The notes under the pieces: generated by a model
Seen by the model: the letters and a program-made list of their open reading frames with translations, nothing else
Databases searched by the model: none
What the model was told of the DNA's origin: nothing
Shown: in pieces, positions 1 through 22,948 of the stretch
Layout of the letters: each line of letters begins with the position of its first letter
Numbering within the stretch: position 1 is the first letter of the stretch
Made by a program: the position numbers and the translations under genes
NCBI GenBank assembly: GCA_013359235.1
Contig: JABWCE010000007.1
Span: 26,609-90,608 of the forward strand
DNA length: 64,000 bases
From: Bacteroidota bacterium
Lineage (GTDB): Bacteria > Bacteroidota > Bacteroidia > NS11-12g > UBA9320
Direction of reading: 5' to 3'

Positions 1-283
1 CAGTTTCCACATGGCAAAACAGCAGGAATAATAACATTTTTGCCTATCAAATTTTTATCTCCATCCACTACTGTTCCGCTTATTTCATGACCAAGAGTTA
101 AGGGAAGAGTTTTTTTGGTTTGTACTCCGTAATGCCAAAAGCTCAAATCTGTATGGCAAACACCGCATCCTGCAACTTTTACAAGCACTTCTCCATCTGC
201 CAATTTTGGAAAATCACAATTTGTTTTGACAAAGTCTTTGTCAGTTTCTATCATTTGCCACTGGTACATTTTATCTATGTGCA
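1..283 (-). CDS. Zn-dependent alcohol dehydrogenase (MDR family), N-terminal part; continues beyond window start
   Basis: Reverse-strand translation from the ATG at 283 reads MHIDKMYQWQ...CGVCHTDLSFWHYG...GHEISGTVVDGDK. It carries the catalytic-Zn GHExxG and CGxCHTD motifs. It sits 4 nt downstream of the previous minus-strand gene. Confidence 0.55.
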
Positions 284-287
284 TTAT

Positions 288-466
288 TTATTTTTTTATA
301 TCATAAAAACATCTGACAGGAGAATACAATTTCCCTTCTGCCATCAATTTTTTTAGAGTTTTATCTACTATTTTTTTATCAATACCTGTAAGTTCAGCTA
401 TTTCGCCTCCTTTAAGTGGTTTGGCAGATTTTGAAATCTGTTTTAATATTTGTTCTGATGCTTCCA
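288..466 (-). CDS. small hypothetical protein, possible winged-helix/HTH
   Basis: Start trimmed to MEASEQILKQ to avoid overlapping the thiolase. The sequence KGGEIAELTGIDKKIVDKTLKKLMAEGKL resembles an HTH recognition segment. It is embedded inside the operon. Confidence 0.3.
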
Positions 467-474
467 TATTTTTT

Positions 475-1737
475 TTATAAATTGATATTTTCAAATAATA
501 CAGCAGTACCCTGCCCACCTCCAATACAGGCAGAGGCTATTCCGTATCTTATATTTTTTCTTTTCATTTCTTTAGCCAGCGTTAATGATAATCTCAAGCC
601 ACTTGCAGCAAGTGGATGTCCTATGGCAATAGCTCCGCCGTTTACATTTAGTTTGTTTCTATCAAGTCCAAGTTCTATTTCGCAACCTATAACCTGCGAT
701 GAAAATGCTTCATTAATTTCAAATAATCCAATTTCGTCTATTTTTAAACCTGTGATTTCTAATAGATATTTTATAGCGGGCACGGGACCGAGTCCCATTA
801 CCTTTGGGTCTATGCCACTAGTAGCTGCAGCTACAACTTTTGCAATGGGATTAATATTTTTCGACTTTACAAAACTGCCAGAAGCTACAATGCCTGCCGC
901 GGCTCCATCTACTATTCCGCTGCAATTTCCGGCTGTTAAAACTCCCACTTCGGCAAAAACATTTGGTAATTTTGATAAAGATTCAAGATTAGTTTCACGT
1001 ATTTGTTCATCGCTGGTAAAATCTTTAACTCCACCCGATAATTTTACTTTTCTTGATTTTAAACCTTCAATTTCAAAAACTGTTGAATTTATTGGTGTTA
1101 TTTCTTCATTCAAAAAACCATTATTTTTAGCAGCAATAGCACGGTTAAACGATAGTAAAGCATATTCGTCACATTGATTACGAGTAATTTTATGTTTTAC
1201 AGCTACATTTTCGGCAGTAAACCCCATTGGATAGCCGGCGGCTGTATCGTCTAATGCTTCCCAAAGCATATCTTTAAATACAGGACGACCAAGCGGATAT
1301 CCCATTCTGTTTCCAAAACTTACTGTAGGAGCAAGTGACATACTTTCGGCTCCACAACACAGGGTTGCGTCTGCTTTGCCAAGTGTAATCTGTTCGGCAG
1401 AAGTTACAATGGTTTCAAAACCTGAGGCACAAATTCTCTGTACCATCAATGCAGGAATAGGCATTGGCAGCCCTGAAAATAGTGCTACATGACGTGGAAA
1501 AAAATATGCATCGCCTGATGATTGACCTATGTTTGCCATTACTGCCTGGTCAATATCAGAGGGTGAAATATTACTATTACTTATTGCAGCTTTGCTTGCA
1601 AAAATTCCAAGATCGGTTGGCGATACATTTGCAAGAGTGCCACAGTATTTGCCAAATGGCGTTCTTGCTCCATTTATAAAAAAAATGTCGTCAAATATTA
1701 TACCTATACCCTTATCTTTTGAGTGAAATGCTTTCAT
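475..1737 (-). CDS. acetyl-CoA C-acyltransferase (thiolase II family)
   Basis: 420 aa. N-terminal FINGARTPFGKY, CASG active-site region and C-terminal GGGQG motif. Full-length thiolase fold. Confidence 0.85.
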   Translation of the reverse strand: MKAFHSKDKGIGIIFDDIFFINGARTPFGKYCGTLANVSPTDLGIFASKAAISNSNISPSDIDQAVMANIGQSSGDAYFFPRHVALFSGLPMPIPALMVQRICASGFETIVTSAEQITLGKADATLCCGAESMSLAPTVSFGNRMGYPLGRPVFKDMLWEALDDTAAGYPMGFTAENVAVKHKITRNQCDEYALLSFNRAIAAKNNGFLNEEITPINSTVFEIEGLKSRKVKLSGGVKDFTSDEQIRETNLESLSKLPNVFAEVGVLTAGNCSGIVDGAAAGIVASGSFVKSKNINPIAKVVAAATSGIDPKVMGLGPVPAIKYLLEITGLKIDEIGLFEINEAFSSQVIGCEIELGLDRNKLNVNGGAIAIGHPLAASGLRLSLTLAKEMKRKNIRYGIASACIGGGQGTAVLFENINL

Positions 1738-1746
1738 TTATTTTTT

Positions 1747-3597
1747 TTAAACTAACTGTTTTGTTTTATTTTTTGATTCTTTAACAACTTCTGTATTTTT
1801 CCATGTTTGTTTTGCTATAATTGCAGCACCAAGCGAAACAACAAATTGAGGAAAATCAATTGTTTTAACTTCTCTATTAAATTTTTTAATTAAAATAGTA
1901 CTCATGTAAGGATGATGTGCAGCAACGCCTCCAATCATAAAAATAGGAATTCCGGGAACCAATCTCATTTTTGCAACTTTGTTTGCTATTGAAATGTAAA
2001 TACCTCTTGCAATATCTTGCATCGGCATTCCGTCAAATACCCAGTTCATAATTTCTGTTTTGGCAAAAACAGTACAAAAACTGTTTAATTCCTTGTCATA
2101 TTCTGAATGTGATGCAAGGTTGCTCATCTCTTCAATTTTTATTTCTGCTCTTTCTGAAATTTCTTCGAGAAAGGCACCGGTTCCGGCAGCACATTTATCA
2201 TTCATATAAAAGTTTGAAACTTGATTATCATTGTTACAATGAATTACTTTTATGTCTTCGCCACCTATATCTATAATATTTTTTTCTCCGTCATAAGAGT
2301 CTGAAACTCCTGCTGCTGCACAATTTATTTCGGTTTTTGTTATATCTGTTTCGGTAAAATGTTTTCTTCCGTATCCTGTAGCACAACTGTATTTTATATT
2401 GAATGATGAATAAATTGCCTTAATTACATTCTTCATTGCATTTCTGTCTTTATTCATGGTATGTACAATATATCTGAAAACAGGCTTTCCTTTCTCATTA
2501 ATAATTGTAAATTTGGTATATGACGAGCCCAGGTCCATTCCAAGAAAACAGTTTTGTTCTCTGTAGTATTGCAAAGGATGATTTTTTTCAACTAAACCTT
2601 TTAAAACGATTTTTTTGGTTAAAGAAGCATCAGCCCCCATGGGTCTATTCATTACGTTTTTATTAGTCATGGCTTTTATCATGTTTGTAAAAGCGAGGTT
2701 TAACGAAGTTTTTACATAATGCTTTTTGCCATATTCAACTATTTTACCATTGAAATAATCAATTTCGGTAGGACGGTTATTTATTAAATCTAAAGCTAAA
2801 GAAGGGAAATGCTCGCCTCCTTTTTTTAGGTATTGCATACACTTGCGGTAAAAATCGTCGGGAAAACGAATTTTTTCTTTTTCGGCAACTTCTATCCCTT
2901 CGTTTATTAATTGTTCAACGAGTTCAACAGTTTCGGGGTCAGACATTGCTTCGGCCATTGTAAGCCTGCCTACACCACAAAGTGGGCTAAGGGATGCGTT
3001 TAAAATTGTTTTTTCCCAAGTGCGTTTTAATATTTCAAACGAATTTATATTTTCTGTTTTAAAATCTACACTGTTTAATAAGTCTGCAAAAGTTTCGGAT
3101 TGTTTGCATCTGTTGTCATCAATAGAGCCTATATAGTTTGGTGGAGTAAAAAATGTAACTTTTACTGTATTAGGCGACATGAGGTTTCCGGCATAATTAA
3201 TAACCATTCTCAAGGTTTTTGATTCGCCAAAAACCGATGCTAAAATCTGTTCGGTATCTATTCCGTTTTGTGCAGCAATAACGGTCAATTTTTCGGAATT
3301 TAAAATTTCTGCTTCCTTTGCGGCGCCGAGTGTTTGGTATGATTTGAGGGCAAATATCAAATAATCAAGTCCCAAATTTCTCATTTCTGTAACAGAACTA
3401 TAAACATGTTCAAATCTGGTAATAGAAGCATATATATTTTCGAGTATTATTCCTTCGCTTATTACCTTTTTCAGTTTAAATTCGTCTTTATCACATAAAG
3501 CTACCTCGCAACCGGCCTCTTTTAACTTTACAGCCATTATCATACCCACAGGACCAATCCCCACTATTCCAACTTTTATTTTTTCTGATTTTTTCAT
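1747..3597 (-). CDS. fusion protein: ketopantoate-reductase-like (ApbA/PanE) NAD(P)-binding domain + BadF/BadG/BcrA/BcrD-type activase ATPase
   Basis: N-terminal ~310 aa begin KIKVGIVGIGPVGMIMAVKLKEAGCEV (Rossmann GxGxxG) with ApbA_C-like helical region. C-terminal ~300 aa carry MDLGSSYTKF...IGGEDIKVI...MNDKCAAGTGAFLE...IGGVAAH, the activase [4Fe-4S]-bridging Cys motif and ATPase motifs. Confidence 0.8.
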   Translation of the reverse strand: MKKSEKIKVGIVGIGPVGMIMAVKLKEAGCEVALCDKDEFKLKKVISEGIILENIYASITRFEHVYSSVTEMRNLGLDYLIFALKSYQTLGAAKEAEILNSEKLTVIAAQNGIDTEQILASVFGESKTLRMVINYAGNLMSPNTVKVTFFTPPNYIGSIDDNRCKQSETFADLLNSVDFKTENINSFEILKRTWEKTILNASLSPLCGVGRLTMAEAMSDPETVELVEQLINEGIEVAEKEKIRFPDDFYRKCMQYLKKGGEHFPSLALDLINNRPTEIDYFNGKIVEYGKKHYVKTSLNLAFTNMIKAMTNKNVMNRPMGADASLTKKIVLKGLVEKNHPLQYYREQNCFLGMDLGSSYTKFTIINEKGKPVFRYIVHTMNKDRNAMKNVIKAIYSSFNIKYSCATGYGRKHFTETDITKTEINCAAAGVSDSYDGEKNIIDIGGEDIKVIHCNNDNQVSNFYMNDKCAAGTGAFLEEISERAEIKIEEMSNLASHSEYDKELNSFCTVFAKTEIMNWVFDGMPMQDIARGIYISIANKVAKMRLVPGIPIFMIGGVAAHHPYMSTILIKKFNREVKTIDFPQFVVSLGAAIIAKQTWKNTEVVKESKNKTKQLV

Positions 3598-3604
3598 TTA
3601 ATTT

Positions 3605-4051
3605 TTATAAATTTTTTATAAAATAAACCTCATCATTTACTTCCTCGCCTCCGAATGATTTATTAAAAATTTCTTTATATTTTTCTATTTCAGATTCAAT
3701 ATTTTCATCAGTATCAATTATTGCAGCATTGACAATTTTATCATCATTGTTTTCAAAAAGCAAATTCACTTTTTTAATGCAACCGGTAAGGCATCTGCCG
3801 AGTTCGTCGAGATCACGAGGGCAAAAACAACCATCGTTTTCGTTTGGTGTTACAAGGTAATCGGGATTTTTGTAAAGGTTTTTGTCAGGAAAAATAAATG
3901 CAATATTTCGGCTATTACCATCTTTATTCAGCACAACGTATTTCACATAATGACAGGTATCTTTAATAAGTTTTTGAACTTCGTCATTAGCTAATTCTCT
4001 TCCGTCAGCAAGCCTGAAAATTTTGTTTTCTTTCAAATTATCAGATTCCAT
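3605..4051 (-). CDS. hypothetical small acidic protein with CxC-x10-C-x3-C motif
   Basis: 148-aa ORF tightly packed (7-nt gaps) between the HgdB-like gene and the activase fusion. Motif GCFCPRDLDELGRCLTGC. Confidence 0.5.
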   Translation of the reverse strand: MESDNLKENKIFRLADGRELANDEVQKLIKDTCHYVKYVVLNKDGNSRNIAFIFPDKNLYKNPDYLVTPNENDGCFCPRDLDELGRCLTGCIKKVNLLFENNDDKIVNAAIIDTDENIESEIEKYKEIFNKSFGGEEVNDEVYFIKNL

Positions 4052-4058
4052 GTTGTTA

Positions 4059-5282
4059 TTATTTATGTACTAAAACTTTATTACTTGTAATTTGCTCAAT
4101 AAAAGTTTCAATTTTGGTAATACTTTGCCCTTCTGAGTAAAATCTTAGGTCGCACAAATCGCCTTCAATTATCAAAGTGGGTATTCCTGTGCTTTCTGTT
4201 AATCTTTGTGGCAAGCCAAATCTGGAGTTTGAGTTGTTTGCACAGGTTTTTGCATCGTGAAATATTACTCCATCAATTTTAAAGGTTTTGCATAAATCAG
4301 TAAGTATATTTTGTTTTGCATTTTCGCTTCTGTTTATAAAAATTTCAGTATATGCTTTTGCTGATGACTCAAATGGATTTTCGGGGTCGAATGCATCAAA
4401 AACCCAACTGTTGCAATAAGTTGAAGCAACTACTGCTGCATTATTTTGTATAAACAAATCTGAAAGTGATCTTAATTTACCCCAGATTGGCATTCCGTCC
4501 CAGTACAAACGGCAACTTTCGCTTTCCAAAAATCCAATACCTTTTGCAACGTTTTCTTCCATTTCTTTTAGCAAAATTGTATAATAATCTTTTGCCTGTT
4601 GAGTTCCTCTTAAAACAACAATAGGACCCATGTGTATTGTAGCATCAAAAAAACTAATTGGCGAAGGTGTGTTAGTAGCAGTATAAAGTACTTTTTTCCA
4701 AAGGTCTGTAGCTTCTTTGCTCAATTTTAAAGTTTCTCTGAATTTATCAATATCAAATTTTTTTCCGCTTACTTCTTCGCAAACAGGTATCATTTTTCTG
4801 AATTGTGCAGCAACATCTTCTATTACTTCTTCTTTTATTTCGTCTAAGTGCCGTGGGGGGTAAATTCCAATAACCGGCACATTGAGTTCGCGACCAAAAT
4901 ATGTAAACCAATCTTGCACTTCTCTGCACTGGTTTGTGTTGTACACAATCAAATCAGGCTTTGGCGGACCTTCAAGACCGTAGTGTTCTTGCAGAGGTGT
5001 TTCTCCTTTAAGATATGAACCAATATCAGCAGTAAGATAAGAGCAAATATCGTTTGAATATCCAAACTTTGCTGATTCGGGAATAAGATCACCTGCTGTA
5101 CGTGTAGCACCGAGTAATGCTCCATGATTTTCGGGAAAATGTACTTCAAAGCCAAATGAACGCAAAAGTTCGGCTGGTCCTACACTTGTACACCATGCTA
5201 TTTTTTTATTTTTATTTTTCATACCGAGGAAATAATTTCCCATTATTTCCTTCATCACTTTTGTACTTTGTATTTTATACAT
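4059..5282 (-). CDS. 2-hydroxyacyl-CoA dehydratase / BcrB-BcrC family protein (HGD-D domain), lone subunit
   Basis: 407 aa. N-terminal KKIAWCTSVGPAELLRSFGFEVHFPENHGALLGA and the overall pattern are typical of the HgdB/YjiM/DCCP family. No paralogous partner gene is adjacent. Confidence 0.75.
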   Translation of the reverse strand: MYKIQSTKVMKEIMGNYFLGMKNKNKKIAWCTSVGPAELLRSFGFEVHFPENHGALLGATRTAGDLIPESAKFGYSNDICSYLTADIGSYLKGETPLQEHYGLEGPPKPDLIVYNTNQCREVQDWFTYFGRELNVPVIGIYPPRHLDEIKEEVIEDVAAQFRKMIPVCEEVSGKKFDIDKFRETLKLSKEATDLWKKVLYTATNTPSPISFFDATIHMGPIVVLRGTQQAKDYYTILLKEMEENVAKGIGFLESESCRLYWDGMPIWGKLRSLSDLFIQNNAAVVASTYCNSWVFDAFDPENPFESSAKAYTEIFINRSENAKQNILTDLCKTFKIDGVIFHDAKTCANNSNSRFGLPQRLTESTGIPTLIIEGDLCDLRFYSEGQSITKIETFIEQITSNKVLVHK

Positions 5283-5287
5283 TTCTT

Positions 5288-7414
5288 TTATAATTTAATT
5301 CTTGCATCTACAGCAACAGCCTTGTCGCTAAAAGCCATTACAGGATTTAAGTCCATTTCTTTTATCTGTGGAAAATCTGTAACGAGTTGAGAAATTCTTT
5401 GAATTATTTCTACTACACTTTTTTTATCAATTCCTAGCTGACCTCTCACTCCGTCTAATAATTTAGCTGATTTTATAGTTGAAAGCATTTCTTGAGCTTC
5501 GGTTTGAGTTACAGGACTGAGTTTAAAAACTACATCTTTCAGCACTTCTACATAAATTCCGCCCATTCCAAACATTATCAAATGCCCTGCATTACTTCCA
5601 GCCGAAACTCCAATTATAAGTTCTTTGCCACCCGGCATAAACTTCTGAACAAGGTATTTTAAATTAGTGCCACTAAAATTTTTATTAATGTTTTGTATTG
5701 CAGTTCTAAGTTCGTCTTTACATTTTATATTTATAACAACTCCGCCTTTATCGCTTTTGTGAACAATTTCGGGCGACTCGGCTTTTACTACAACAGGGTA
5801 TCCTATTTTTGATGATATTTGTTCTGCCTTTTCGTAACTGTCGGCTATTGCCCAGTTTGCAACAGCAATTTTGTACGCTTCTAATATTTTAAAAACATTT
5901 TCGGAAGAAAGAAACTTATCTTTTTCAGAATTTGAAAGAATATTAAAAACAGTACTTTTTTCAACATCATCAAAAACCATAGCCTCTCCAATTTCTCTGC
6001 TTTGTATTTTATGATATTTGTACAATGCCCCCAATGCTTTTGCAGCAGTAGTAGGAAAACTGTAGCATGGCACTCCACCATCTCTCATGATTTTTGCGGT
6101 ATGTTGATACCTTTCAAAACTCAAATTTGTCATAAAATTACAAATTATAGGTTTTTTCTTTTGTTTGCTTACTTCTACAATATTTCTAGCAACTTCGTCG
6201 GTATCAGTAAATGGTGCAGTTACAAAATTTATAAAAACGCTGTCAATATTTTCTTCGTCCATCAGTACATCCAAAGCACTTCTAAAATGAGCTCCACCAC
6301 CTGTTGCTACCACATCTATAGGGTTGCCTATTGTAGCTTCGGGTAATAGAGTGTTTTTTAAAATATTTACTGCTTTTTCGCTCAATGGAGGTATTTCAAG
6401 GCCTGCACTTACAAGTTCATCTGTAGCAATTACTGCAGGACCTCCGGTATTTGTAATTATTCCTACTCTATTACCTTTTGGAATTGGCTGAGTAGAAAAT
6501 GCCATAGCTGCCTGGCACATTTCTTCTTCATTTGTAAATGATAAAACACCGGTTTTTTCAAAAATCAATTCGGTTGAAATATCAACTCCGGCAAGCGAGC
6601 CAGTATGCGAAGCTGCAGCTTTTGCTCCGGCTTCGGTTCTGCCTGATTTCATAGCTAAAATTGGTTTTTTCTTAGCTACTATTTTAGCTGTTTCAAGAAA
6701 TTCTTTTGGATTGTGAAATCCTTCTGTATATAATATTATTGCTTTTGTACCTGTGTCTTGTCCATAATATTCTACCACATCTGATATAGAAATATCGCAG
6801 GCATTGCCATTTGAGGCATACATTCTCATCCCTATATCCAAATCGAAAAGACTCTGCATAATAAATGCTCCCACTCCACCGCTAAGGGCTACAATAGAAA
6901 TGGTTCCGGGCTTTGGAAATGTGAACGTAAAATCACAATAAGCATTGTAGTCAGGGTCGCAATTTATTATTCCCTGGCAATTGGGTCCGAAAATACGAAC
7001 TCCGTATTTTTTTGCATTTTCAAGAAAAGCATTTTGCAATGCTACTCCTTCATCGCCCATTTCGCTGAAACCTGCCGAATTTATTATTACCGATTTTATT
7101 CCTTTTTTTCCGCAATCTTCAATTATTTGTGGTACAAATTTGCTTGGTATTATTACATGTGCAAGGTCAATTTCATCGGGTACATCAAAAATTGATGGAT
7201 ATGCTTTGATACCTCTAATCTCCGGTTCTTTGGGATTTATAGGATAAATTTTGCCAGTATAATTGAAATGAATTAGATTTTTGGTGATGACATTACCAAT
7301 TGATAACTCTTTTGAAGAAGCACCAATGATAGCTATTGATTTGGGCTTAAAAAGAGTATCCAACTCGTGTTTAATAGACATTTGCTTACTTGCAATTGAA
7401 TTTTGAACTCCCAT
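5288..7414 (-). CDS. acyl-CoA synthetase (NDP/ADP-forming), fused alpha-beta type
   Basis: 708 aa. N-terminal CoA-binding Rossmann (SIAIIGASSKELSIGNV), succinyl-CoA-synthetase-like middle region, C-terminal ATP-grasp_5 (GYPVVVKAESPEIVHKSDKGGV). Confidence 0.8.
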   Translation of the reverse strand: MGVQNSIASKQMSIKHELDTLFKPKSIAIIGASSKELSIGNVITKNLIHFNYTGKIYPINPKEPEIRGIKAYPSIFDVPDEIDLAHVIIPSKFVPQIIEDCGKKGIKSVIINSAGFSEMGDEGVALQNAFLENAKKYGVRIFGPNCQGIINCDPDYNAYCDFTFTFPKPGTISIVALSGGVGAFIMQSLFDLDIGMRMYASNGNACDISISDVVEYYGQDTGTKAIILYTEGFHNPKEFLETAKIVAKKKPILAMKSGRTEAGAKAAASHTGSLAGVDISTELIFEKTGVLSFTNEEEMCQAAMAFSTQPIPKGNRVGIITNTGGPAVIATDELVSAGLEIPPLSEKAVNILKNTLLPEATIGNPIDVVATGGGAHFRSALDVLMDEENIDSVFINFVTAPFTDTDEVARNIVEVSKQKKKPIICNFMTNLSFERYQHTAKIMRDGGVPCYSFPTTAAKALGALYKYHKIQSREIGEAMVFDDVEKSTVFNILSNSEKDKFLSSENVFKILEAYKIAVANWAIADSYEKAEQISSKIGYPVVVKAESPEIVHKSDKGGVVINIKCKDELRTAIQNINKNFSGTNLKYLVQKFMPGGKELIIGVSAGSNAGHLIMFGMGGIYVEVLKDVVFKLSPVTQTEAQEMLSTIKSAKLLDGVRGQLGIDKKSVVEIIQRISQLVTDFPQIKEMDLNPVMAFSDKAVAVDARIKL

Positions 7415-7433
7415 TATTTTTTATGTAAAGCTA

Positions 7434-8270
7434 TCAGGCTACAACTGCCTGTTTTTCTTTAAGTTTTATATGTCTGAAACCGCCCCATAATGCAGCACCA
7501 ATTGCACCTGCATAAATTGCATCAGGATGAGAATGTATTTGATATGATTTTCCCATCTCTTCAAGTTGCTCTTCAAGAGCTTGTATCATACCTTTATTTA
7601 AAGCCATTCCACCTGTAACAACAATGGGCGATTCGGCTTTTAGCGAACTTAAAAGTTTTAGTATTCTGTTGGCAATTGAGATATGAATTCCTTTTATAAT
7701 ATCGGGAGTTGAAATTCCTCTCGAAACCATATTTATAACATCAGTTTCGGCAAGAACAGCACATATTCCTGAAGAAATTTCGGGATTTTGTGATTGCATT
7801 GATACATCGCCAACTTCTTCAATTGAAAGTCCTAAATATCTTGAAATATTTTCAACAAACTGCCCCGATCCCGAAGCACATTGTCCAGTCATTTTGTAAT
7901 CGTAAACTCTTGCATCTTCAGATATTTTTATTGCTCTTACATAAAGTGCTCCCATATCTACCACGGTAATTGCATTGGGGTATAGAAAATGGGCGCCTTT
8001 TGCATGAGTAGTCATTCCATAAAAATGTCCTCTTTTTCTTTTTACCAAATCACCCTCGCCTGTTGAAGCAAAGTAGGCAATATCTTCGTATTTGAGGTTG
8101 TGTTTTGATAGCATTTTCTGAGTCATTTCTTCTGCAACCTGCGATGGATCGCGTTTTCTTATCTTTTCGGTGTGTTTGTCTATAAGTTTGGGATTATCAG
8201 AATAATCAACAAGTACTAATTTTATGAAATTAGACCCAACATCAATCCCCATTGTATAAAAATTTTCCAT
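7434..8270 (-). CDS. BadF/BadG/BcrA/BcrD-family ATPase, short form (BcrD/activase-like)
   Basis: 278 aa. MGIDVGSNFIKLVLVD, MTGQCASGSGQFVE Cys motif and GGMALN. Lacks the insertion seen in the upstream paralog. Confidence 0.8.
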   Translation of the reverse strand: MENFYTMGIDVGSNFIKLVLVDYSDNPKLIDKHTEKIRKRDPSQVAEEMTQKMLSKHNLKYEDIAYFASTGEGDLVKRKRGHFYGMTTHAKGAHFLYPNAITVVDMGALYVRAIKISEDARVYDYKMTGQCASGSGQFVENISRYLGLSIEEVGDVSMQSQNPEISSGICAVLAETDVINMVSRGISTPDIIKGIHISIANRILKLLSSLKAESPIVVTGGMALNKGMIQALEEQLEEMGKSYQIHSHPDAIYAGAIGAALWGGFRHIKLKEKQAVVA

Positions 8271-8287
8271 ATCTATTATTTATTAAT

Positions 8288-9712
8288 CTATTGAATTGCT
8301 TCTTGTGTTTTTTTATTTGAAGGAAGGTCGGCACTAATGTTTCTTCTGGCAAACATTGCTCCTCCCAAAGCGCCCATAAATATTGAATCAGTATGAATAT
8401 TTATTGTTATATCATTGCCGTAATTGTCTCTTACAAGCTGGGTAAGATATTTGATAACAGCAGGATTTCTGGCAACTCCTCCGGTAAATGTAAACTCGTT
8501 GAAAACACCACCCGAACGTGCTATAAGCGACATTGCACGCATAATAATTGCTTTGTGCAAGCCACCGAGTATATCTTCACGTTTTTCGCCAAGGTTTGTA
8601 AGTTCTCTAAGTTCTGCACCTGCAAAAACTGTACATGTTGAGCAAATATTTACTTCCTTTTGAGCTTCCATTGCCATTGGTCCAAGTTCGTTTAACGAAA
8701 TACTCATCTCGTCGGCAATATACCCAAGGTATCTGCCACATCCAGCAGCACAGCGGTCGTTCATTTGAAATGATGTTACAAGTCCATATTTATCAACCTG
8801 TATTGCTTTTGTATCTTGCCCGCCAATGTCGAGTACTGTTCTTGTGTCAGGAAAAACAGCATGTGCCCCAAATGCATGGCACAATATTTCGGAACGAATA
8901 CATTCTTGAGGGAAGGGCAATAATGCTCTGCCATAGCCTGTACCGGTCATATTTTCGATATGAAATTCGAGATCGGCAATGTCGTCAATATGAGAACGAA
9001 GTGTTTCTGAAACCTGGTCAAAATTTCCTTTCAGCAAATTCATTTCTGCATCAAAGTTTATACTTTCGTTTTCGGCTACTGTATCGGGCAAGTTTTTGTA
9101 TTTTTCTTTAAGCTCAACCATAGCTTTGTGTACCAGTTCTTTGAAATCGAATTTAATTCTTTCGTTTTCGGCCGGAGAAATACTTTTGTCCCAAACGGTC
9201 ATTAGTGGCTCGAAAAGTGCCATTTCTAATTTGTTTACTTCTTCGTTGTATTTTTCTGATACAATATCTCTGAAAAACTGATTTTTTTCACCCAGATTGT
9301 TGTACAAATAATCGTGCTTTATTTTTGGTTTAAAGGCTTTGCGAATGTTTCTTAAATGACCTAGAATTTCATTTTTTTGTTCATCGTTTTTAAAAAAATT
9401 GTTGCAAGTTTTTACTAGTTCATCGCCCAATTTATCTAGTTTTATTTTAAATTGTTCGTATTGAAATACACTTTCGAGGTCTGAAATGTATTTTTTGTAT
9501 TCGGGTTTCGAAATTATTTCTTTTTCAAGGTTTTTTTTAAGAATTGAAAATCTAGCATTGTATGTAGCTTCATCTCTTGCTATATCGGCTGCTACAGAAT
9601 AATTTGCACGGGTGTTTGTAATACCTCTACCTATTATTTCGTCTTGCTCGTTGATAATTACAGCTTTTGAAGTTGTGGAGCCGAGGTCAACTCCAAGATA
9701 ATATTTGCTCAT
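8288..9712 (-). CDS. BadF/BadG/BcrA/BcrD-family ATPase, long form with ~190-aa helical insertion (BcrA/BadF-like)
   Basis: 474 aa. YYLGVDLGSTTSKAVII, then a long charged insertion, then IGGQDTKAIQV, MNDRCAAGCGRYLG and TGGVARN. The size and insertion position match the large ATPase subunit of class-I benzoyl-CoA reductases. Confidence 0.75.
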   Translation of the reverse strand: MSKYYLGVDLGSTTSKAVIINEQDEIIGRGITNTRANYSVAADIARDEATYNARFSILKKNLEKEIISKPEYKKYISDLESVFQYEQFKIKLDKLGDELVKTCNNFFKNDEQKNEILGHLRNIRKAFKPKIKHDYLYNNLGEKNQFFRDIVSEKYNEEVNKLEMALFEPLMTVWDKSISPAENERIKFDFKELVHKAMVELKEKYKNLPDTVAENESINFDAEMNLLKGNFDQVSETLRSHIDDIADLEFHIENMTGTGYGRALLPFPQECIRSEILCHAFGAHAVFPDTRTVLDIGGQDTKAIQVDKYGLVTSFQMNDRCAAGCGRYLGYIADEMSISLNELGPMAMEAQKEVNICSTCTVFAGAELRELTNLGEKREDILGGLHKAIIMRAMSLIARSGGVFNEFTFTGGVARNPAVIKYLTQLVRDNYGNDITINIHTDSIFMGALGGAMFARRNISADLPSNKKTQEAIQ

Positions 9713-9725
9713 TTTATTATTTTTT

Positions 9726-11027
9726 TTAAACTGTTACTGATTCTTGTGATAAAATTATTTTACGTTGCTCAAGCATTTGAAAATACGATTCAAGTCTGTT
9801 TTTAATATTTGCATACGAAAAATACCTTGGGTCAACAAGGTCGCTTTCAATAAAACCAACCGGAACGCCAGTGCGTTGTTCTATTTCACGCATTATCATA
9901 AGTTGCCCTGCAGAAAATGAATTGCATGATTTAATTGAGTTAATCAAAAATCCGTCAGCTTGATATTCTTTTACATATTTTTCTATGAGATCAACCCTTT
10001 GTGGAAGGTTTAGATTGGTATAACAACCCATACAATATGTAGCAAGGCTTTCGAGTGGCTCTTCGGGGTTTTGGCGATATCCTAAATCATAAACACCGCC
10101 TACTTTTGTATAAGTAGATGCTACAATTACAGCACCCATATCATAAAATATTTTCCAAAATTCGCGGAAGTTTGTCCAGTTGGGAGGTCCTTCTACTACA
10201 AGACGGAAGCGTTCTTTTTGCATTTCGCCTTCTGGGGTTACCGGAAGTAATTTTTTTTCAGCTCTGTCTTTTATTTCGTGATAAAGTTCTTTGTAATATT
10301 CAAGACATTCGTCTGACCCTCTAAAGGCGGTATTTATAGGACCCATGTAATAAACTCCGGCAAAATACGCATCAATTGGCGATGGTTTGATTTTGGCAAG
10401 TTGCAATACTTTTACCCAGTAATCTTCTGATTGAACCGAGTTGCTCAATAGTTTGCTTAATCTGGCAGAATCAAATTTTTTACCTGATACTTTTTCAAAT
10501 TTTGGCAAAACTTCTTCTTTTAGTTGTTTCACCATATAATCAATTTGTTCTTTTGTTATTTTGCCATCTTCCTGATATGGTGTGTGCAACATTGCTATTT
10601 CGGCATTTGGATAAAGTCTGTTGAGATTTTCAAACCATTTTAGAAATGTAAAACATCCTGTATAGCTCAAAAGTAGCAAATCTGGCTCGGGAAGTTTTTC
10701 TCCTGTAGGACCTATATTTCCGTTTAACATCATTCCTATATCGCATTTCACATAAGTACATACATCTTCTGAATGACCCATTTTTTCGGCATCTTTTATA
10801 TACCCGCCCGATTTTTTTCTCATACCCGATTGTAAAGCGTTAATCTCGGGATATACCGGAAGCATATCGAATGACAAAATGAGTTCTATCAAGTTGCCGG
10901 GGACAAACGTATAACAAACTTTTTTGCCTGTTTCTTTTGCTTTGCTAAGGTCATTAAATTGTTTAGCGAGCATTTCTTTTTGAATAATCATGCTCTTTTC
11001 TTTTACTGCATCTTTTGGATTTGCCAT
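9726..11027 (-). CDS. HgdA/HgdB-BcrB/BcrC family subunit (BcrB-like, 433 aa)
   Basis: HGD-D-type sequence (KKVCYTFVPGNLIELILSFDMLPVYPE, conserved Cys). Paralogous to the next gene. Confidence 0.7.
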   Translation of the reverse strand: MANPKDAVKEKSMIIQKEMLAKQFNDLSKAKETGKKVCYTFVPGNLIELILSFDMLPVYPEINALQSGMRKKSGGYIKDAEKMGHSEDVCTYVKCDIGMMLNGNIGPTGEKLPEPDLLLLSYTGCFTFLKWFENLNRLYPNAEIAMLHTPYQEDGKITKEQIDYMVKQLKEEVLPKFEKVSGKKFDSARLSKLLSNSVQSEDYWVKVLQLAKIKPSPIDAYFAGVYYMGPINTAFRGSDECLEYYKELYHEIKDRAEKKLLPVTPEGEMQKERFRLVVEGPPNWTNFREFWKIFYDMGAVIVASTYTKVGGVYDLGYRQNPEEPLESLATYCMGCYTNLNLPQRVDLIEKYVKEYQADGFLINSIKSCNSFSAGQLMIMREIEQRTGVPVGFIESDLVDPRYFSYANIKNRLESYFQMLEQRKIILSQESVTV

Positions 11028-11076
11028 ATTCTTTAATCTTTTAAAATTTCTACTGCTTTTTCAAATTTATGTTTTT

Positions 11077-12240
11077 TTATGCCCAAAGTTTTATCGAGTC
11101 TGAAAATGTTCCGGCTTGTTCTTTTATTACTTTAAACTGCCCTGTATTTTCGTGATATTGGAAGTTTATATGCGGAACACCTGCCGCATCACATTCTTTT
11201 TGCATTTCGGGGCGGTCTAACAGAGCTGGGTCGCAAAAACTTGCAGCCGAAAATATAACACCATCAGCTTCTCTTCTTTTTACAAGTTCTACAAGTCTTT
11301 TACCTTTTGGATTTCCTACATCGTAATAGCACGAAGCAAAAGTACTTTGGTTGAGATATGCTTTTGTGATAGCTTCGAGGGGGTCGTTGGTATCTTCTTC
11401 AATATCTCCTTGTATCCATCGTGAGCCAAGCATAAAATCGTCGTCAACAATGTAGCATCCAGCCATTTCTATTGATTTTATTAATCCCACTGGCGGTTGT
11501 TCGCAAAACGAGCCTGAAACCACAACTCTAATATTATCCATTGCCTCGCCTCTTTCATTTCTTATTACATTTAATATTTTCTGAAGCATTTCATTGTGTT
11601 CTTCTACTGTAATGCAAATACCGGCTCTAAGAATATGATATGTTTCTACTGCCGAAAGCCTCCAAGGATATTTTTGCCTTATGTCGTAAATCTCTTCTAT
11701 TAACCTTCTGTTTATATTGTAAAGTTTTATTGCTTTATTAAGACCGTCAACACTTGCTTTTACACCATTTACATTGTAAATATCATCTATTACTTTTTCC
11801 ATTTCATGTTTGTAAAATGTACCTCCTATAAATGGGTCAAAGTTTTGTGCATAATCAAAATATCTTTGAAATTTACCTTTTTTTGACAACTTAAACATAC
11901 CTGATAGATTTCTTACGCAATCGCAAATTGCAGGAAATAAAAACCCATCAAAACCATTTAGATTATTATCCAAAGCCATTTCAATTATTCCACGAGGCAA
12001 ATGACAAATGTAAGATTGATAATATGCATCGCCTTTAATAATTTGTTTGCGGTCGCCTGTACCCATAATTCCCACAGCTATACCATTGGCTGCATGAATT
12101 ATTTCTCGAGGAACATATATTGGCAGATATCCAACAATTACTCTTTTTTCATCTTTGCTTTTCCATTGTTTTGCATGAGTAAATTCGAGGTCGAATGCTG
12201 TTTTTTCGCACCACGATAATATTTCTTCTAAACTATTCAT
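11077..12240 (-). CDS. HgdA/HgdB-BcrB/BcrC family subunit (BcrC-like, 387 aa)
   Basis: HGD-D-type sequence (VIVGYLPIYVPREIIHAANGIAVGIMG...ICDCVRNL). First gene of the operon. Confidence 0.7.
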   Translation of the reverse strand: MNSLEEILSWCEKTAFDLEFTHAKQWKSKDEKRVIVGYLPIYVPREIIHAANGIAVGIMGTGDRKQIIKGDAYYQSYICHLPRGIIEMALDNNLNGFDGFLFPAICDCVRNLSGMFKLSKKGKFQRYFDYAQNFDPFIGGTFYKHEMEKVIDDIYNVNGVKASVDGLNKAIKLYNINRRLIEEIYDIRQKYPWRLSAVETYHILRAGICITVEEHNEMLQKILNVIRNERGEAMDNIRVVVSGSFCEQPPVGLIKSIEMAGCYIVDDDFMLGSRWIQGDIEEDTNDPLEAITKAYLNQSTFASCYYDVGNPKGKRLVELVKRREADGVIFSAASFCDPALLDRPEMQKECDAAGVPHINFQYHENTGQFKVIKEQAGTFSDSIKLWA

Positions 12241-12281
12241 TTCTTTTTTAAAAAGTATTTATTTGATAATATAATGTGTGG

Positions 12282-12289
12282 CAAATTTA
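12282..12289 (-). promoter_or_regulatory. candidate Bacteroidota -7 element (TAAATTTG on minus strand) upstream of the bcrC-like gene
   Basis: Matches TAnnTTTG about 45 nt upstream of the ATG at 12240, in the 154-bp intergenic region after rsfS. Confidence 0.25.
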
Positions 12290-12394
12290 TTTTTGTTTAG
12301 TTTGCAATGTAATGATTAAAATCATGCTTAAACAGTTGAACTTTAATCAGCTTTAATTGTTTAAAAAGAAAAGGTTTCTGATTTTTAAGGTTTT

Positions 12395-12766
12395 TTACTC
12401 TACATCACTGTATTTAGTCATTTTGCCATCGTTCCACAATTCTTCAAGGTTATAATAAAATCTTTTTTCACGATTAAAAATATGAACAATTACATCGCTA
12501 TAATCTATTATAATCCATTCGGCATTCATAAATCCTTCGCGGCTAAAAGGTTTTAATCCAGTAGCTTTTCTCACTTCATCTTCAACAGAATCGGCAATTG
12601 CATCAATTTGCTTTGATGAATCAGCATGACATATTACAAAAAAATCGGCAATTGTAATTTTTAGTTTTCTCAGGTCAATTTTTACAATGCTTTTGGCTTT
12701 TTTTTCCTGCATCCCTTTTACTATGATGTCAGCCAGGTTGTTGCCTGATACGGCTTTTTTCAACAT
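12395..12766 (-). CDS. rsfS: ribosome silencing factor RsfS (Iojap family)
   Basis: 123 aa, with IVKGMQEKKAKSIVKIDL...ICHADSSKQIDAIADSVEDEV typical of RsfS. Confidence 0.85.
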   Translation of the reverse strand: MLKKAVSGNNLADIIVKGMQEKKAKSIVKIDLRKLKITIADFFVICHADSSKQIDAIADSVEDEVRKATGLKPFSREGFMNAEWIIIDYSDVIVHIFNREKRFYYNLEELWNDGKMTKYSDVE

Positions 12767-12817
12767 TCAGTATTTTTATATTTATTTTTGCTTCCGCAAA
12801 AATCGTAAAAATTTCAA

Positions 12818-13582
12818 ATGACACATTCTTTTTTTGAAAAAATAACTTTTTATTATTTTGATGAAACAGATTCTACAAACGATTTAGCAAATTTGCTTCT
12901 TAAACAAAACAAAGCAGAAAATGGCGATGTAATTGTTACAAAATTTCAAACCAAAGGAAAAGGACAATCGGGCAGCAATTGGTTTTCTGAAAGAGATAAA
13001 AGTGTTTTGATTTCGCTTATTTGCAAAGAAATAAATATAGATATTTCAATGCTCACAACAATAAATATGCTTGTTTCGCTAGCCTTATCAAAAACAATAA
13101 AAATTTATCTGCAAAATGAAAATATTAAAATAAAGTGGCCAAATGATATTTATGTAAACAATAAAAAAATTTCGGGTATTTTGATTGAAAGTAATATAAT
13201 TGGTGATACATTAAAAAATATAATAATAGGGATTGGGATAAATGTGAACCAAGATAATTTTCCCGACTTATTGCCCCTTGCCTGTTCTTTTTATACAATT
13301 TCTAACAAAAAGTTTGACACTAATGAAATAACAGGTGTTTTAATTGACAATTTGAACAAGCAACTTGCAGAAATTAAATATTTTGACTTAGAAAAAATTA
13401 AAAGCGAATACGAGTCACAATTATACGGCAAAGATGAGAGTAAGCAGTTTATTAGTAATGGCAAATCATTCGAAGGTACAATAAAAGGAATAAATAAAAA
13501 TGGGCAATTAGAAGTATTAGTAAATAATAATTTAGAAATTTTTAACAATAAAGAAATAGAATTTGTACGGAGCAGTAATTGA
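12818..13582 (+). CDS. birA: biotin--[acetyl-CoA-carboxylase] ligase
   Basis: 254 aa. GKGQSGSNWFS and KWPNDIYVNNKKISGIL motifs of BPL/LPL catalytic domain. Confidence 0.8.
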   Translation: MTHSFFEKITFYYFDETDSTNDLANLLLKQNKAENGDVIVTKFQTKGKGQSGSNWFSERDKSVLISLICKEINIDISMLTTINMLVSLALSKTIKIYLQNENIKIKWPNDIYVNNKKISGILIESNIIGDTLKNIIIGIGINVNQDNFPDLLPLACSFYTISNKKFDTNEITGVLIDNLNKQLAEIKYFDLEKIKSEYESQLYGKDESKQFISNGKSFEGTIKGINKNGQLEVLVNNNLEIFNNKEIEFVRSSN

Positions 13583-19787: not shown

Positions 19788-19807
19788 GATTATATCCTCC
19801 TATCTAA

Positions 19808-22800: not shown

Positions 22801-22948
22801 TACCTTTTACTACTACTGAAACACCCGGAATAGCTTCTTTTTCGGAAGCTGATGTTACTTTACCGGTAATTGTCCGGTTTTGTGCTACTGATGGAATTAC
22901 CCATCCTACGAGCAATAATCCTAAAAATAATATGTAATACTTTTTCAT
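19808..22948 (-). CDS. susC: SusC/RagA-family TonB-dependent outer-membrane transporter
   Basis: 1046 aa. Signal peptide, carboxypeptidase-regulatory-like N-domain, TonB box/plug, and C-terminal aromatic residue ending ...KANF. Confidence 0.9.
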   Translation of the reverse strand: MKKYYILFLGLLLVGWVIPSVAQNRTITGKVTSASEKEAIPGVSVVVKGTTIGTSTDINGNYTVSVPSSRSVLIFSYISMKTVEIAVGSNSTIDVSLEDDGKGLDEVVVTAVALEKSAKSLGYSTQKVDGKEVAESGEQNVIQGLSGKAAGVFVQGTSGTPGASSKILLRGNVTFEGNNQPLIVVDGVPIDNSTSNTVAGDYPFNMNLQGVNNSNRGIDINPDDIESINILKGPAAAALYGAQAASGAIIITTKKARVKGKGRGFGVVYSTSIELQKVNKLPELQTKYGQGNGGGALLKSKLTGKLDSVVEVGKFSASTPNSWGPAIASDKAYDNLEEFFKRGEVFSNSITLNAFNEKSSLRLSFANLKQDGIIPNSEYKRNTITVNADHKISDKFSFGTSFSYINSGGTLVQNGSNLAGVMLGLTRTPTDYRLDDPTSTGPNGWTNVDGSQRLWYPLYDNPHWSVRNNPYTTDVNRMYGNINFKASPFSFMDLNYRLGTDVYTDKRVSIFSIGSNQPDNAPGGEINQNIQTYRYVYQDVIATFKRSLTDDIVGSLAIGSNVQYEKSEDQFLRGRDLTIPNYYNLSNASNLYANGSYAVLKKTGVFGDLNLSFKDYLFLNVTGRQDRWSSFSKTIFYPSTSLAFLFTDFVKQKWFTFGKVRLAYAQAGKGPSPYRTQNYYAKPTFTDGFTSGLGFPYLSQNGFGISNTLNDPNIKPETTSSTEIGLDLRFFDSKLRFDFTWYNQKSKNIILSIPVAPSSGFRALYTNSGEMENKGIEIIASGTPYKDKNFSWDISLNFNKNNNKVLKLGNGVEELSPEAAFTSNSAYAIVGEPFGVIYGSKWLRNDQGQLLIKTNGLPAVDPQKGNLGNPYPDWMMGIRNSFNFKGVRLTGLFDIRQGGEIWNGTYARLNRMGRTDESADRNRYYIIEGVKQSDGTTNDIPVSASSYWQTYQGDGGSYASENAMQDASWVRLRELGISYNIKIKQIEKYVKSIDLGIVGKNVWLKTEYKGVDPETSLTGAGSNIGGFDYFNNPGLKSWIFSLKANF

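Follow-up and report, generated by a model that had tools for sequence, protein, structure and literature searches.

A predicted ADP-forming acyl-CoA synthetase in the slot of an AMP-forming ligase beside an HgdA-like gene in benzoyl-CoA clusters of Bacteroidota

Why should a benzoyl-CoA degradation cluster carry an ADP-forming acyl-CoA synthetase, and in which direction does that enzyme run? The question is raised by a 64,000 nt stretch of a metagenome-assembled genome (MAG) of an uncultured anaerobic Bacteroidota bacterium (the window, meaning this whole stretch; GC content ~0.33), in which the gene for a fused alpha-beta, NDP-forming acyl-CoA synthetase (ACD) lies between the benzoyl-CoA reductase (Bcr) gene bcrD and a gene for a protein resembling the alpha subunit of 2-hydroxyacyl-CoA dehydratases (HgdA-like). 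Known bzd, bad and bam benzoyl-CoA clusters usually carry their own ligase gene, and most characterised ACDs serve energy conservation in fermenters. An earlier account made from the letters of the window alone (the sequence-only reading) offered two roles for ACD, activation of the substrate or conservation of ATP from the thiolase product in reverse. Comparison with related loci points to ACD having taken over the slot of an AMP-forming ligase, and we give roughly an even chance to the reading in which ACD is the activating ligase that feeds the HgdA-like enzyme. The enzyme family, the intact catalytic residues, the subfamily signature, the gene linkage and the displacement series are read directly from the sequences. 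The direction in which ACD works, and that it acts on the acid of the HgdA-like enzyme, we infer; which acid this is remains speculative.

The features of the ACD gene in the window are as follows.

5288..7414, minus strand: ACD, fused alpha-beta NDP-forming acyl-CoA synthetase (uninterrupted open reading frame (ORF), 708 aa, ATG start)
6965..7342, minus strand: ACD subdomain 1, CoA-binding, aa 25-150 (PF13380, CoA_binding_2, 93 bits; PF02629, 49 bits)
6497..6910, minus strand: ACD subdomain 2, Succ_CoA_lig, aa 169-306, with the swinging loop (PF13607, 139 bits)
6008..6466, minus strand: ACD subdomain 5, Ligase_CoA_2, aa 317-469 (PF19045, 29 bits)
5291..5929, minus strand: ACD subdomains 3/4, ATP-grasp (ATP-grasp_5), aa 496-708 (PF13549, 230 bits)
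6605..6607, minus strand: codon of His270, the predicted phosphohistidine (His-alpha), motif AASHTGSLAG, aligning with H256 of Nmar_0206 (PMC11494057)
5759..5761, minus strand: codon of His552, the predicted second catalytic His (His-beta), motif SPEIVHKSDKGGV / EIVHKSD (from translation and alignment)
6974..6976, minus strand: codon of Gln147 (GPNCQG), first residue of the acyl-pocket signature, mapping to L131 of Nmar_0206

The start used by NCBI lies 11 codons further downstream (P0001, 697 aa). The Pfam domain order, [1-2-5-4-3], is that of a fused alpha-then-beta chain. All five subdomains of the ACD superfamily are present, as Pfam matches span aa 23-708 and the protein aligns end to end with the solved structure 8wzu. 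H270 and H552 are invariant in the subfamily of ACDs that are linked to HgdA-like genes (36/36 members). The gene is thus predicted to encode a catalytically competent synthetase of the ADP-forming type, in line with the class to which the sequence-only reading had assigned it.

To characterise the neighbourhoods of ACD, we scanned species-representative genomes for orthologs, which gave 40 loci that were classed by tblastn with the operon proteins. Loci are labelled L0xx or L1xx, each being a contig recovered around a homolog, and L006 is the source contig of the window. ACDs with at least 69% identity to that of the window occur at 16 loci, all of them Bacteroidota MAGs from lakes, reservoirs, groundwater and Tara samples. 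The HgdA-like gene directly follows ACD in all 15 of these loci that have downstream sequence (L013 stops at ACD). Most of the 15 have bcrCBAD before ACD, and after it a gene for a 148-aa protein (p148), a fusion of an ApbA-type reductase and an activase (ApbA::activase), and thiolase, Had, Oah and Dch genes; L018 and L019 have no bcr upstream of ACD. The locus of Candidatus Fischerbacteria (ACD 57% and HgdA-like 57% identical) comprises a thioesterase, an activase, HgdA-like, ACD and a membrane protein, with no bcr. The ACDs of other phyla with 28-38% identity have none of the operon's neighbour genes. Outside Bacteroidota (Fischerbacteria, Aminicenantia and unassigned contigs with GC contents of 0.37-0.67), ACDs that are 43-65% identical and carry the pocket signature set out below stand beside HgdA-like and activase genes, and Bcr is sometimes absent. 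The linkage between ACD and HgdA-like is seen in the window and in 35 other loci. Because the two genes are adjacent across the ortholog loci while bcr is sometimes absent, the constant partner of ACD is HgdA-like and not Bcr, which goes beyond what had been noticed from the window by itself.

The HgdA-like family was also found by a metagenome scan on contigs with GC contents of 0.32-0.70, and its named relatives are from Anaerolineae/Chloroflexi, Aminicenantia and Planctomycetota. These genes are flanked by an activase and by a ligase, which is either an ACD (43-65% identity) or a PRK06187-like AMP-forming ligase. Such modules are often near Had, Oah or Dch-like genes plus class I Bcr-like or AFOR/BamB-like genes. 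We considered whether the HgdA-like protein and its activase could be a stand-alone benzoyl-CoA reductase, which is unlikely given that class I Bcr as well as AFOR/BamB-like genes accompany the module. Two ORFs near the module were also rejected as candidates: the 372-aa ORF after the Fischerbacteria ACD is unlikely to be a hidden beta subunit or a ligase relic, being hydrophobic, without similarity to BcrC or to the ligase and probably a membrane protein, and a 125-aa ORF in L094 is unrelated to p148.

The strongest available argument for the activating direction comes from sister clusters that have a different ligase in the same slot. HgdA-like homologs were traced to their contigs, and the ligase of L049 was run by tblastn against all loci and aligned with its matches. 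In Flavobacteriales MAGs (L049-51) the gene order is bcrC, bcrB, bcrA, a saccharopine-dehydrogenase-like gene, bcrD, X, HgdA-like, ApbA::activase, thiolase, Had, Oah, Dch and a gene for 3-hydroxyacyl-CoA dehydrogenase and enoyl-CoA hydratase (3HCDH/ECH). X, in the slot of ACD, is a 581-aa AMP-binding ligase (PF00501 and PF23562; L049:8254-9999), and there is no ACD. Approximately 20 metagenome loci likewise have an AMP-binding ligase of 570-590 aa at the ACD position and lack ACD. Homology to aa 418-569 of the L049 ligase was found in p148 (33% identity, E = 2e-29, BLASTP), and the loci could be arranged in five states.

State A (L049-51 and ~20 metagenome loci): intact ligase, no ACD
State B (L010): 522-aa ligase with ACD directly after it
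State C (L014, L017, L020, L038): remnants of ~180 aa between bcrD and ACD, with the same end point as the L010 protein
State D (the window and eight others): p148 of ~150 aa after HgdA-like, with the A10 segment deleted
State E (a few loci): ACD, no remnant

The ligase of L010 (8354-9922) has Phe in place of the invariant Ser of the A3 P-loop (YTFGTMGIPK), the sole such case among 20 ligases, and lacks the C-terminal segment that bears the A10 Lys. This protein is probably a pseudo-enzyme in decay, which would show the displacement half completed. In a neighbour-joining tree of 98 HgdA-like proteins, built without support values, the ACD-linked members form one large and one small clade that nest inside AMP-ligase-linked members. 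Among the Group-1 loci of the sample seeded with HgdA-like proteins, ~21 have an AMP-forming ligase versus ~4 with ACD. The shared slot in sister clusters and the remnants that stand beside ACD indicate that an ancestral, FadD-like AMP-forming ligase was displaced by ACD at least once in Bacteroidota.

AMP-forming ligases are normally irreversible toward the thioester. Since a ligase of this irreversible type was replaced while all other genes of the cluster stayed, the exchange favours a role for ACD in activating an acid over one in harvesting ATP. Of the two roles that the sequence-only reading had put side by side, substrate activation is thus the one supported by the AMP-forming ligase in the slot and by its remnants, which conservation of ATP from the thiolase product leaves unexplained.

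The free-standing remnant has features of its own. Members of the p148 family (in the window, L009-L023, L038 and L055) share invariant cysteines C33, C75, C77, C87 and C91 (motifs CHY, GCFCPR and ELGxCLxGC), have lost the A10 Lys segment and are found at two different gene positions among the genomes. The alignments identify p148 as the Cys-rich C-terminal domain of the displaced AMP-forming ligase, apparently retained as a separate gene; a metal or Fe-S site, or docking to the HgdA-like protein, are possible roles. Its single-sequence structure prediction has a mean pLDDT of 61, and a Foldseek search of the PDB with this model gave no match with E < 0.2, with a few ANL enzymes among the non-significant matches.

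No AMP-binding ligase or CoA-transferase was detected in the remaining 51 kb of the window, where ORFs from 100 aa upward were examined, nor in the rest of the operon on L006. The tblastn search of the window with the related L049 ligase had the p148 C-terminal relic as its sole match. A scan of the flanking ORFs with the PROSITE PS00455 pattern also gave no match, although the P-loop Met of this ligase family escapes the pattern. ACD is the only CoA-activating enzyme of the cluster and of the ~70 kb viewed, which bears out the sequence-only reading for a cluster that joins a Thauera-type Bcr to an Hgd-like module. The same reading had noted that known Bcr and Hgd pathways use AMP-forming aryl-CoA ligases or CoA-transferases; an ADP-forming activator is indeed unusual, and a review of aryl-CoA ligases lists no ADP-forming member (PMC8388817). 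In the literature that we searched, neither benzoyl-CoA clusters nor 2-hydroxyacyl-CoA dehydratase clusters are described with an ADP-forming ligase, and no paper connects ACDs with 2-hydroxyacyl-CoA dehydratases.

The specificity of ACD was approached through the acyl pocket. In Nmar_0206 and the Korarchaeum ACD1 the acyl-contacting positions are L131, F146, A164, G355 and S385 (PMC11494057). The signature residues of the window ACD are Q147, G180, A370, T371, T399 and A400. Residues Q147, F162, G180, A370, T371 and T399 were scored in all 36 HgdA-linked ACDs (36/36), the ACD of L136 having S in place of T at position 371. The full signature is absent from all 18 unlinked ACDs; residue 147 is L, I or S in these, and G180 occurs in only one. 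The pocket common to acetate-type enzymes (L/M at 147, A at 180, G-D at 370/371 and P at 399) is not matched by the window ACD, which has Q, G, A-T and T. A search of a library of 1.84 billion proteins gave 9,385 matches (E <= 1e-30), and among the 150 best representatives the commonest pattern is L-F-A..G-D-P-Q, while 11 have the signature, some of them only 34-40% identical to the window ACD. The ACDs of L135 and L136 carry the signature, and the split ACD of the Anaerolineae locus L137, where an AMP-forming ligase adjoins the module, does not. The window ACD is therefore placed by its residues in a discrete bacterial, HgdA-linked subfamily. The distinct signature at acyl-contacting positions predicts a specificity of its own, and acetate is unlikely to be the substrate.

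Comparison with characterised enzymes agrees with this placement. The best NCBIfam model is NF045493 (4-hydroxybutyrate-CoA ligase, ADP-forming), with a score of 565 against a cut-off of 1300, followed by NF045494 (Archaeoglobus acetate-CoA ligase; 503 against 1200), TIGR02717 (acetate--CoA ligase, ADP-forming; 488 against 567) and the 3-hydroxypropionate-CoA ligase model (468 against 1300). With all cut-offs missed widely, these scores place ACD outside the acetate-, 4-hydroxybutyrate- and 3-hydroxypropionate-specific equivalogs. The closest solved structure is 8wzu (Nmar_0206 of Nitrosopumilus maritimus; 453 bits, 37.6% identity over 670 columns), and further PDB matches are Nmar_1309, 2csu of P. 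horikoshii (358 bits), ACD1 of Candidatus Korarchaeum, DddX and Pat.

ACD shares with Nmar_0206 (8WZU) and Nmar_1309 (9Y43) the single-chain order [1-2-5-4-3], the swinging-loop His and the second His. The likeness to these thaumarchaeal synthetases of the 3-hydroxypropionate/4-hydroxybutyrate (3HP/4HB) cycle extends to the use of an ADP-forming enzyme for activation instead of AMP-forming ones: Nmar_0206 replaces the AMP-forming enzymes of related organisms and saves one ATP equivalent (PMC11494057). They differ in that Nmar_0206 is archaeal and belongs to an aerobic CO2-fixation cycle, whereas the window ACD is bacterial and belongs to an aromatic-degradation operon, and in the pocket, which has L131, A164, G355 and S385 in Nmar_0206 and Q147, G180, A370 and A400 in the window ACD. 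Furthermore, the thaumarchaeal replacement was inferred by comparing phyla, whereas here remnants of the displaced ligase stand in the same operon.

Acetate-forming ACDs (archaeal ACS I; Korarchaeum ACD1, 4XYL; Chloroflexus, Entamoeba and Giardia) have the superfamily, the phosphohistidine mechanism and the five subdomains in common with the window ACD, but work toward acetate and ATP in central fermentation, whereas the window ACD has another pocket and stands in an aromatic/dehydratase operon. Archaeal ACS II/III (Pyrococcus/Thermococcus; Archaeoglobus AF1938) are members of the ACD superfamily that accept aryl acids such as phenylacetate. They differ from the window ACD in having two subunits and in releasing aryl acids with a gain of ATP during peptide fermentation, and 2csu, the one Pyrococcus alpha subunit with a PDB entry, reaches 358 bits against 453 bits for 8wzu. 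The sequence-only reading had described ACD as the kind that archaea use for aryl acids. Nothing ties it specifically to those enzymes; its closest characterised or solved relatives are the thaumarchaeal 4-hydroxybutyrate- and 3-hydroxypropionate-CoA ligases, and it belongs to a separate bacterial subfamily. The Clostridia CoA-transferases HadA, FldA and GctAB and the AMP-forming BclA, BadA, BzdA and BamY occupy the same pathway position as ACD, being encoded beside bcr or beside a dehydratase and its activase and providing the CoA thioester. They are unrelated to ACD in fold and mechanism and differ from it in energy cost (predicted ADP + Pi for ACD, versus AMP + PPi or thioester recycling).

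The operon around ACD comprises 16 tightly packed genes on the minus strand, of which ACD is the fifth. The genes that lie in the window are listed below.

11077..12240, minus strand: bcrC-like, first gene of the operon (TIGR02263, 457, above the cut-off of 421)
9726..11027, minus strand: bcrB-like (TIGR02260, 681, above the cut-off of 487)
8288..9712, minus strand: bcrA-like ATPase subunit (TIGR02259, 440, below the cut-off of 578 but still the best match)
7434..8270, minus strand: bcrD-like ATPase subunit (TIGR02261, 321, above the cut-off of 313)
4059..5282, minus strand: HgdA-like, a single HGD-D family protein of 407 aa (PF06050, 220 bits)
3605..4051, minus strand: p148, 148 aa (no Pfam match; homology to the C-terminal domain of AMP-forming ligases)
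1747..3597, minus strand: ApbA/PanE-type NAD(P)H 2-oxoacid reductase (aa 8-312) fused to activase (aa 352-595) (PF02558, PF08546, PF01869)
475..1737, minus strand: thiolase (acetyl-CoA C-acyltransferase; TIGR01930, 390, above the cut-off of 241)
288..467, minus strand: HTH_11-like ORF of 59 aa between thiolase and had (weak PF08279 match)
1..284, minus strand: 5' part of had (6-hydroxycyclohex-1-ene-1-carbonyl-CoA dehydrogenase, Zn-dependent), which runs off the window (TIGR03201, 461 against a cut-off of 339 on L006)

ACD is separated by 19 nt from the end of bcrD and by 5 nt from the start of the HgdA-like gene. An identical contig was found in a public assembly (L006), where the operon extends past the start of the window, which the sequence-only reading could not show. 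After had, L006 (11454-17189) encodes Oah (TIGR03200, 586, above the cut-off of 464), a 77-aa ferredoxin/delta subunit of a 2-oxoacid:ferredoxin oxidoreductase (OFOR), the OFOR alpha, beta and gamma subunits and a Dch-like hydratase (TIGR03189, its best match, 207, below the cut-off of 292), after which the operon ends. The four-subunit OFOR is VorB-like and, among the loci compared, is clustered only in the window lineage and in L055. As BcrB, BcrC and BcrD exceed the Thauera-type equivalog cut-offs, the context is a genuine class I (Thauera-type) benzoyl-CoA pathway cluster with an added Hgd-like module. Both parts of the fused ApbA::activase pass NCBIfam cut-offs (TIGR00745, 161 against 141; TIGR00241, 168 against 125); the activase part is a [4Fe-4S] ATPase of the dehydratase/BCR type (BCR, benzoyl-CoA reductase), and its closest solved structure is HadI (4eht, 140 bits). 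For the HgdA-like protein the closest solved structures are the alpha subunit of HadB (3o3m_A, 2-hydroxyisocaproyl-CoA dehydratase; 178 bits) and MbdO (3-methylbenzoyl-CoA reductase; 132 bits). The 59-aa HTH_11-like ORF (288-467) is conserved in L009, L011 and L020, and its product could be a small regulator of the operon.

Genes for oxidoreductases suggest what the module may act on. Two unrelated kinds of 2-hydroxy/2-oxo-acid oxidoreductase accompany it, one of the ApbA/PanE type and one with FAD_binding_4, FAD-oxidase_C, Fer4 and CCG domains. ApbA is fused to the activase in the window and encoded by a separate gene in L052, L135 and L136; in the Chloroflexi-type loci L101, L103 and L137 the reductase is replaced by an 860-894-aa protein resembling YdiJ (D-2-hydroxyglutarate dehydrogenase) and GlcD. 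L135 has a family-III CoA-transferase (CoA_transf_3), ApbA, HgdA-like and activase, which is the classical dehydratase set, plus ACD. Given these oxidoreductases, the L135 gene set and the resemblance of the HgdA-like protein to dehydratase alpha subunits, the most economical reading is a conversion of a 2-oxo acid by way of an (R)-2-hydroxy acid and its 2-hydroxyacyl-CoA to an enoyl-CoA. Many relatives also carry a bifunctional 3HCDH/ECH in the cluster, and the module is followed in L094 and L111 by thiolase, ECH, 3HCDH, a PaaK-like ligase and IorA, which are genes of arylpyruvate metabolism. The occurrence of the module in benzoyl-CoA clusters with thiolase and 3HCDH/ECH, together with these PaaK-like/IorA relatives, makes the conversion of aryl-lactate via cinnamoyl-CoA to benzoyl-CoA and acetyl-CoA our best single guess.

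On this route, the ApbA domain would make an (R)-2-hydroxy acid by reducing a 2-oxo acid, for which an arylpyruvate (phenylpyruvate, for example) is the most plausible candidate. ACD would turn the hydroxy acid into 2-hydroxyacyl-CoA, converting acid, CoA and ATP to acyl-CoA, ADP and Pi via phospho-His270, and its use in place of the AMP-forming ligase would save one ATP equivalent per molecule activated. The HgdA-like protein and the ATP-dependent activase would dehydrate 2-hydroxyacyl-CoA to the enoyl-CoA (cinnamoyl-CoA), which a hydratase, a dehydrogenase and the cluster thiolase would cleave to benzoyl-CoA and acetyl-CoA, and BcrCBAD, Dch, Had and Oah would then open the ring. Such a route would explain the use of a ligase over a CoA-transferase, the thioester being carried forward and not recycled. 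The phenylpyruvate to cinnamoyl-CoA to benzoyl-CoA route itself has only been hypothesised, in one 2026 paper (PMC13416013). On a wider scale we tentatively propose, with less confidence than we place in the ligase role of ACD, that the signature ACDs and the single-subunit HgdA-like protein together provide a peripheral entry to the benzoyl-CoA pathway that has not been described before and is present in uncultured anaerobes from at least five phyla, with ACD displacing an AMP-forming ligase in Bacteroidota and the Cys-rich domain being kept for a second function.

Several observations weigh against ACD as the ligase of a 2-hydroxyacyl-CoA dehydratase. To our knowledge, every 2-hydroxyacyl-CoA dehydratase and every class I BCR core characterised so far pairs two HGD-D paralogs in a heterodimer. 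No gene for a beta-type partner of the HgdA-like protein was found in ~130 related loci, so that its chemistry is uncertain and may not be that of the classical dehydratases. The reaction of ACDs can run freely either way, and its direction here rests on equivalence with the AMP-forming ligases, of which the displaced one is not a recognised aryl- or hydroxyacid-CoA ligase type. The two kinds of activating enzyme are not always interchangeable, as L136 has a signature ACD together with an AMP-forming ligase, and L135 has ACD together with a CoA-transferase. ApbA is not present in many non-Bacteroidota modules, and the YdiJ/GlcD-like enzyme normally oxidises 2-hydroxy acids, which is a better fit to a reverse route, from enoyl-CoA through 2-hydroxyacid to 2-oxoacid. 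No enoyl-CoA hydratase or 3-hydroxyacyl-CoA dehydrogenase for cinnamoyl-CoA was found in the window operon, these being clustered only in relatives. Lastly, the nesting of ACD-linked HgdA-like proteins comes from a neighbour-joining tree that has no support values.

The alternative that survives best, although we consider it unlikely, keeps the activating direction and changes the acid. ACD would be an ADP-forming aryl-carboxylate-CoA ligase (for benzoate or hydroxybenzoate) that feeds BcrCBAD, and the HgdA-like protein would act later or as an ATP-driven dehydroxylase on substituted aryl-CoA. This fits the position of ACD, which follows bcrD immediately in an operon with BcrB, BcrC, BcrD, Had and Oah scores above the equivalog cut-offs, and the habit of bzd, bad and bam clusters of encoding a ligase of their own. 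Group-1 clusters have exactly one acid-activating gene, which must be ACD if benzoate is the growth substrate, and the argument from the exchange of an AMP-forming for an ADP-forming enzyme is equally applicable. Genes for molybdenum hydroxylase or XdhC near some relatives hint at hydroxybenzoyl-CoA metabolism. However, a signature ACD with HgdA-like and activase occurs without any Bcr gene within 10 kb in L019, L024, L094 and L135, and the constant neighbour of ACD is HgdA-like and not Bcr. The displaced ligase and the Group-2 ligases best match the fatty-acid-type subfamily PRK06187 and are FadD/long-chain-like, with no benzoate-CoA ligase model among the 25 best-scoring NCBIfam families listed for them. 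In L136 the extra AMP-forming ligase beside Dch/Had-like genes could itself be the benzoate ligase. An aryl-carboxylate ligase would also leave the ApbA or GlcD-type 2-hydroxyacid oxidoreductases without a role.

It is more doubtful still that ACD runs in the ATP-forming direction, either from the acetyl-CoA made by the thiolase or from 2-hydroxyacyl-CoA made by the HgdA-like enzyme in reverse; our doubt applies to these two variants taken together. In the second variant, glutaconyl-CoA would be converted to 2-hydroxyglutaryl-CoA, then to 2-hydroxyglutarate and ATP, and then to 2-oxoglutarate, from which OFOR would provide reduced ferredoxin for Bcr. Energy conservation is what most characterised ACDs do in fermenters, the operon thiolase makes acetyl-CoA, and the window lineage has ferredoxin and OFOR delta, alpha, beta and gamma genes in the operon. 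One 2-oxoglutarate per ring would match the two electrons needed by Bcr, and the YdiJ-like dehydrogenase of Chloroflexi-type loci and the thioesterase of Fischerbacteria would fit a CoA-releasing route. Most sister clusters, however, fill the slot with an AMP-forming ligase that is normally incapable of this job and was replaced in situ. The pocket is unlike that of generic acetate-type ACDs at 4-5 acyl-contacting positions, and the acetate-type cut-offs are missed (TIGR02717, 488 < 567; NF045494, 503 < 1200). Formation of acetate would leave the cross-phylum linkage with HgdA-like unexplained, and OFOR genes are part of the cluster in no lineage other than that of the window and L055. The NAD(P)H-dependent ApbA-type enzyme thermodynamically favours reduction of the 2-oxo acid, and there is no glutaryl-CoA dehydrogenase in the cluster. 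The restricted occurrence of OFOR also led us to reject ACD as a succinyl-CoA synthetase for the OFOR product, as this cannot explain the conserved linkage.

A non-catalytic or regulatory protein, akin to the N-terminal part of Pat/YfiQ protein acetyltransferases, is very improbable: Pat structures are among the PDB matches (9it0 and 9isq, ~250 bits) and several orthologs are labelled 'acetyltransferase' by JGI, but Pfam finds no GNAT domain in ACD, which terminates with the ATP-grasp at aa 708, and both catalytic His and the swinging-loop motif are invariant across the subfamily, so that a Pat-type identity was rejected.

With ACD read as an activating ligase, the exchange has an energetic meaning. 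AMP-forming activation costs two ATP equivalents, and class I benzoyl-CoA reductase uses 2 ATP per ring. Energy is very scarce for anaerobes that dearomatise with a class I reductase, and ADP-forming activation would halve the cost of activation, a saving like the one proposed for the thaumarchaeal 3HP/4HB cycle. The series within one operon family, from an intact ligase through a degenerate ligase with ACD to a remnant, would be rare direct evidence that energetics can drive non-orthologous gene displacement. ACDs as a class are well known; what deserves attention is the displacement series within the operon, the survival of the Cys-rich ligase domain as p148 and the wide spread of the HgdA-like module. 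This uncharacterised module of a single-subunit HgdA-like protein, an activase, a 2-hydroxyacid oxidoreductase and a ligase is widespread in benzoyl-CoA clusters, its hosts being uncultured Bacteroidota, Chloroflexi, Aminicenantes, Fischerbacteria and others, and the short residue signature should predict a new ACD substrate specificity.

Bacteroidota MAGs encode more than 120 orthologs with at least 68% identity to ACD. A cultured host of the module was sought, and the named matches are MAGs only. The exact protein is labelled 'MAG: Bacteroidetes bacterium, acetate--CoA ligase family protein' by NCBI. Promoter counts from a scan of positions 1-13000 are no different from those of shuffled sequences.

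Some clusters contain additional genes. The saccharopine-dehydrogenase-like gene (~380 aa) between bcrA and bcrD is found in L049 (6110-7252) and also in L010, L060, L066 and L079. Hydantoinase A/B genes, which are caprolactamase- or acetophenone-carboxylase-like, have been added in some clusters, as have genes for a 940-aa molybdenum hydroxylase or XdhC/MobA-like maturation genes (L052, 1-787 and 13018-16840; L016, 8540-12501; L049, 461-1893). These additions hint at further aromatic substrates, for example hydroxybenzoyl-CoA or ketones.

Elsewhere in the window, SusC/SusD, DUF4290, DUF1573 and T9SS-type genes are present. A Peptidase_M2 (angiotensin-converting-enzyme family) protein (16445-18280, minus strand; 328 bits) adjoins a SusC/SusD pair (18375-22948), which is an unusual pairing of a peptidase with a transporter of the polysaccharide-utilisation type. 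Further along, a 406-aa bacterial WD40 beta-propeller protein (37975-39195, minus strand) adjoins a crotonase-family gene (37146-37916).

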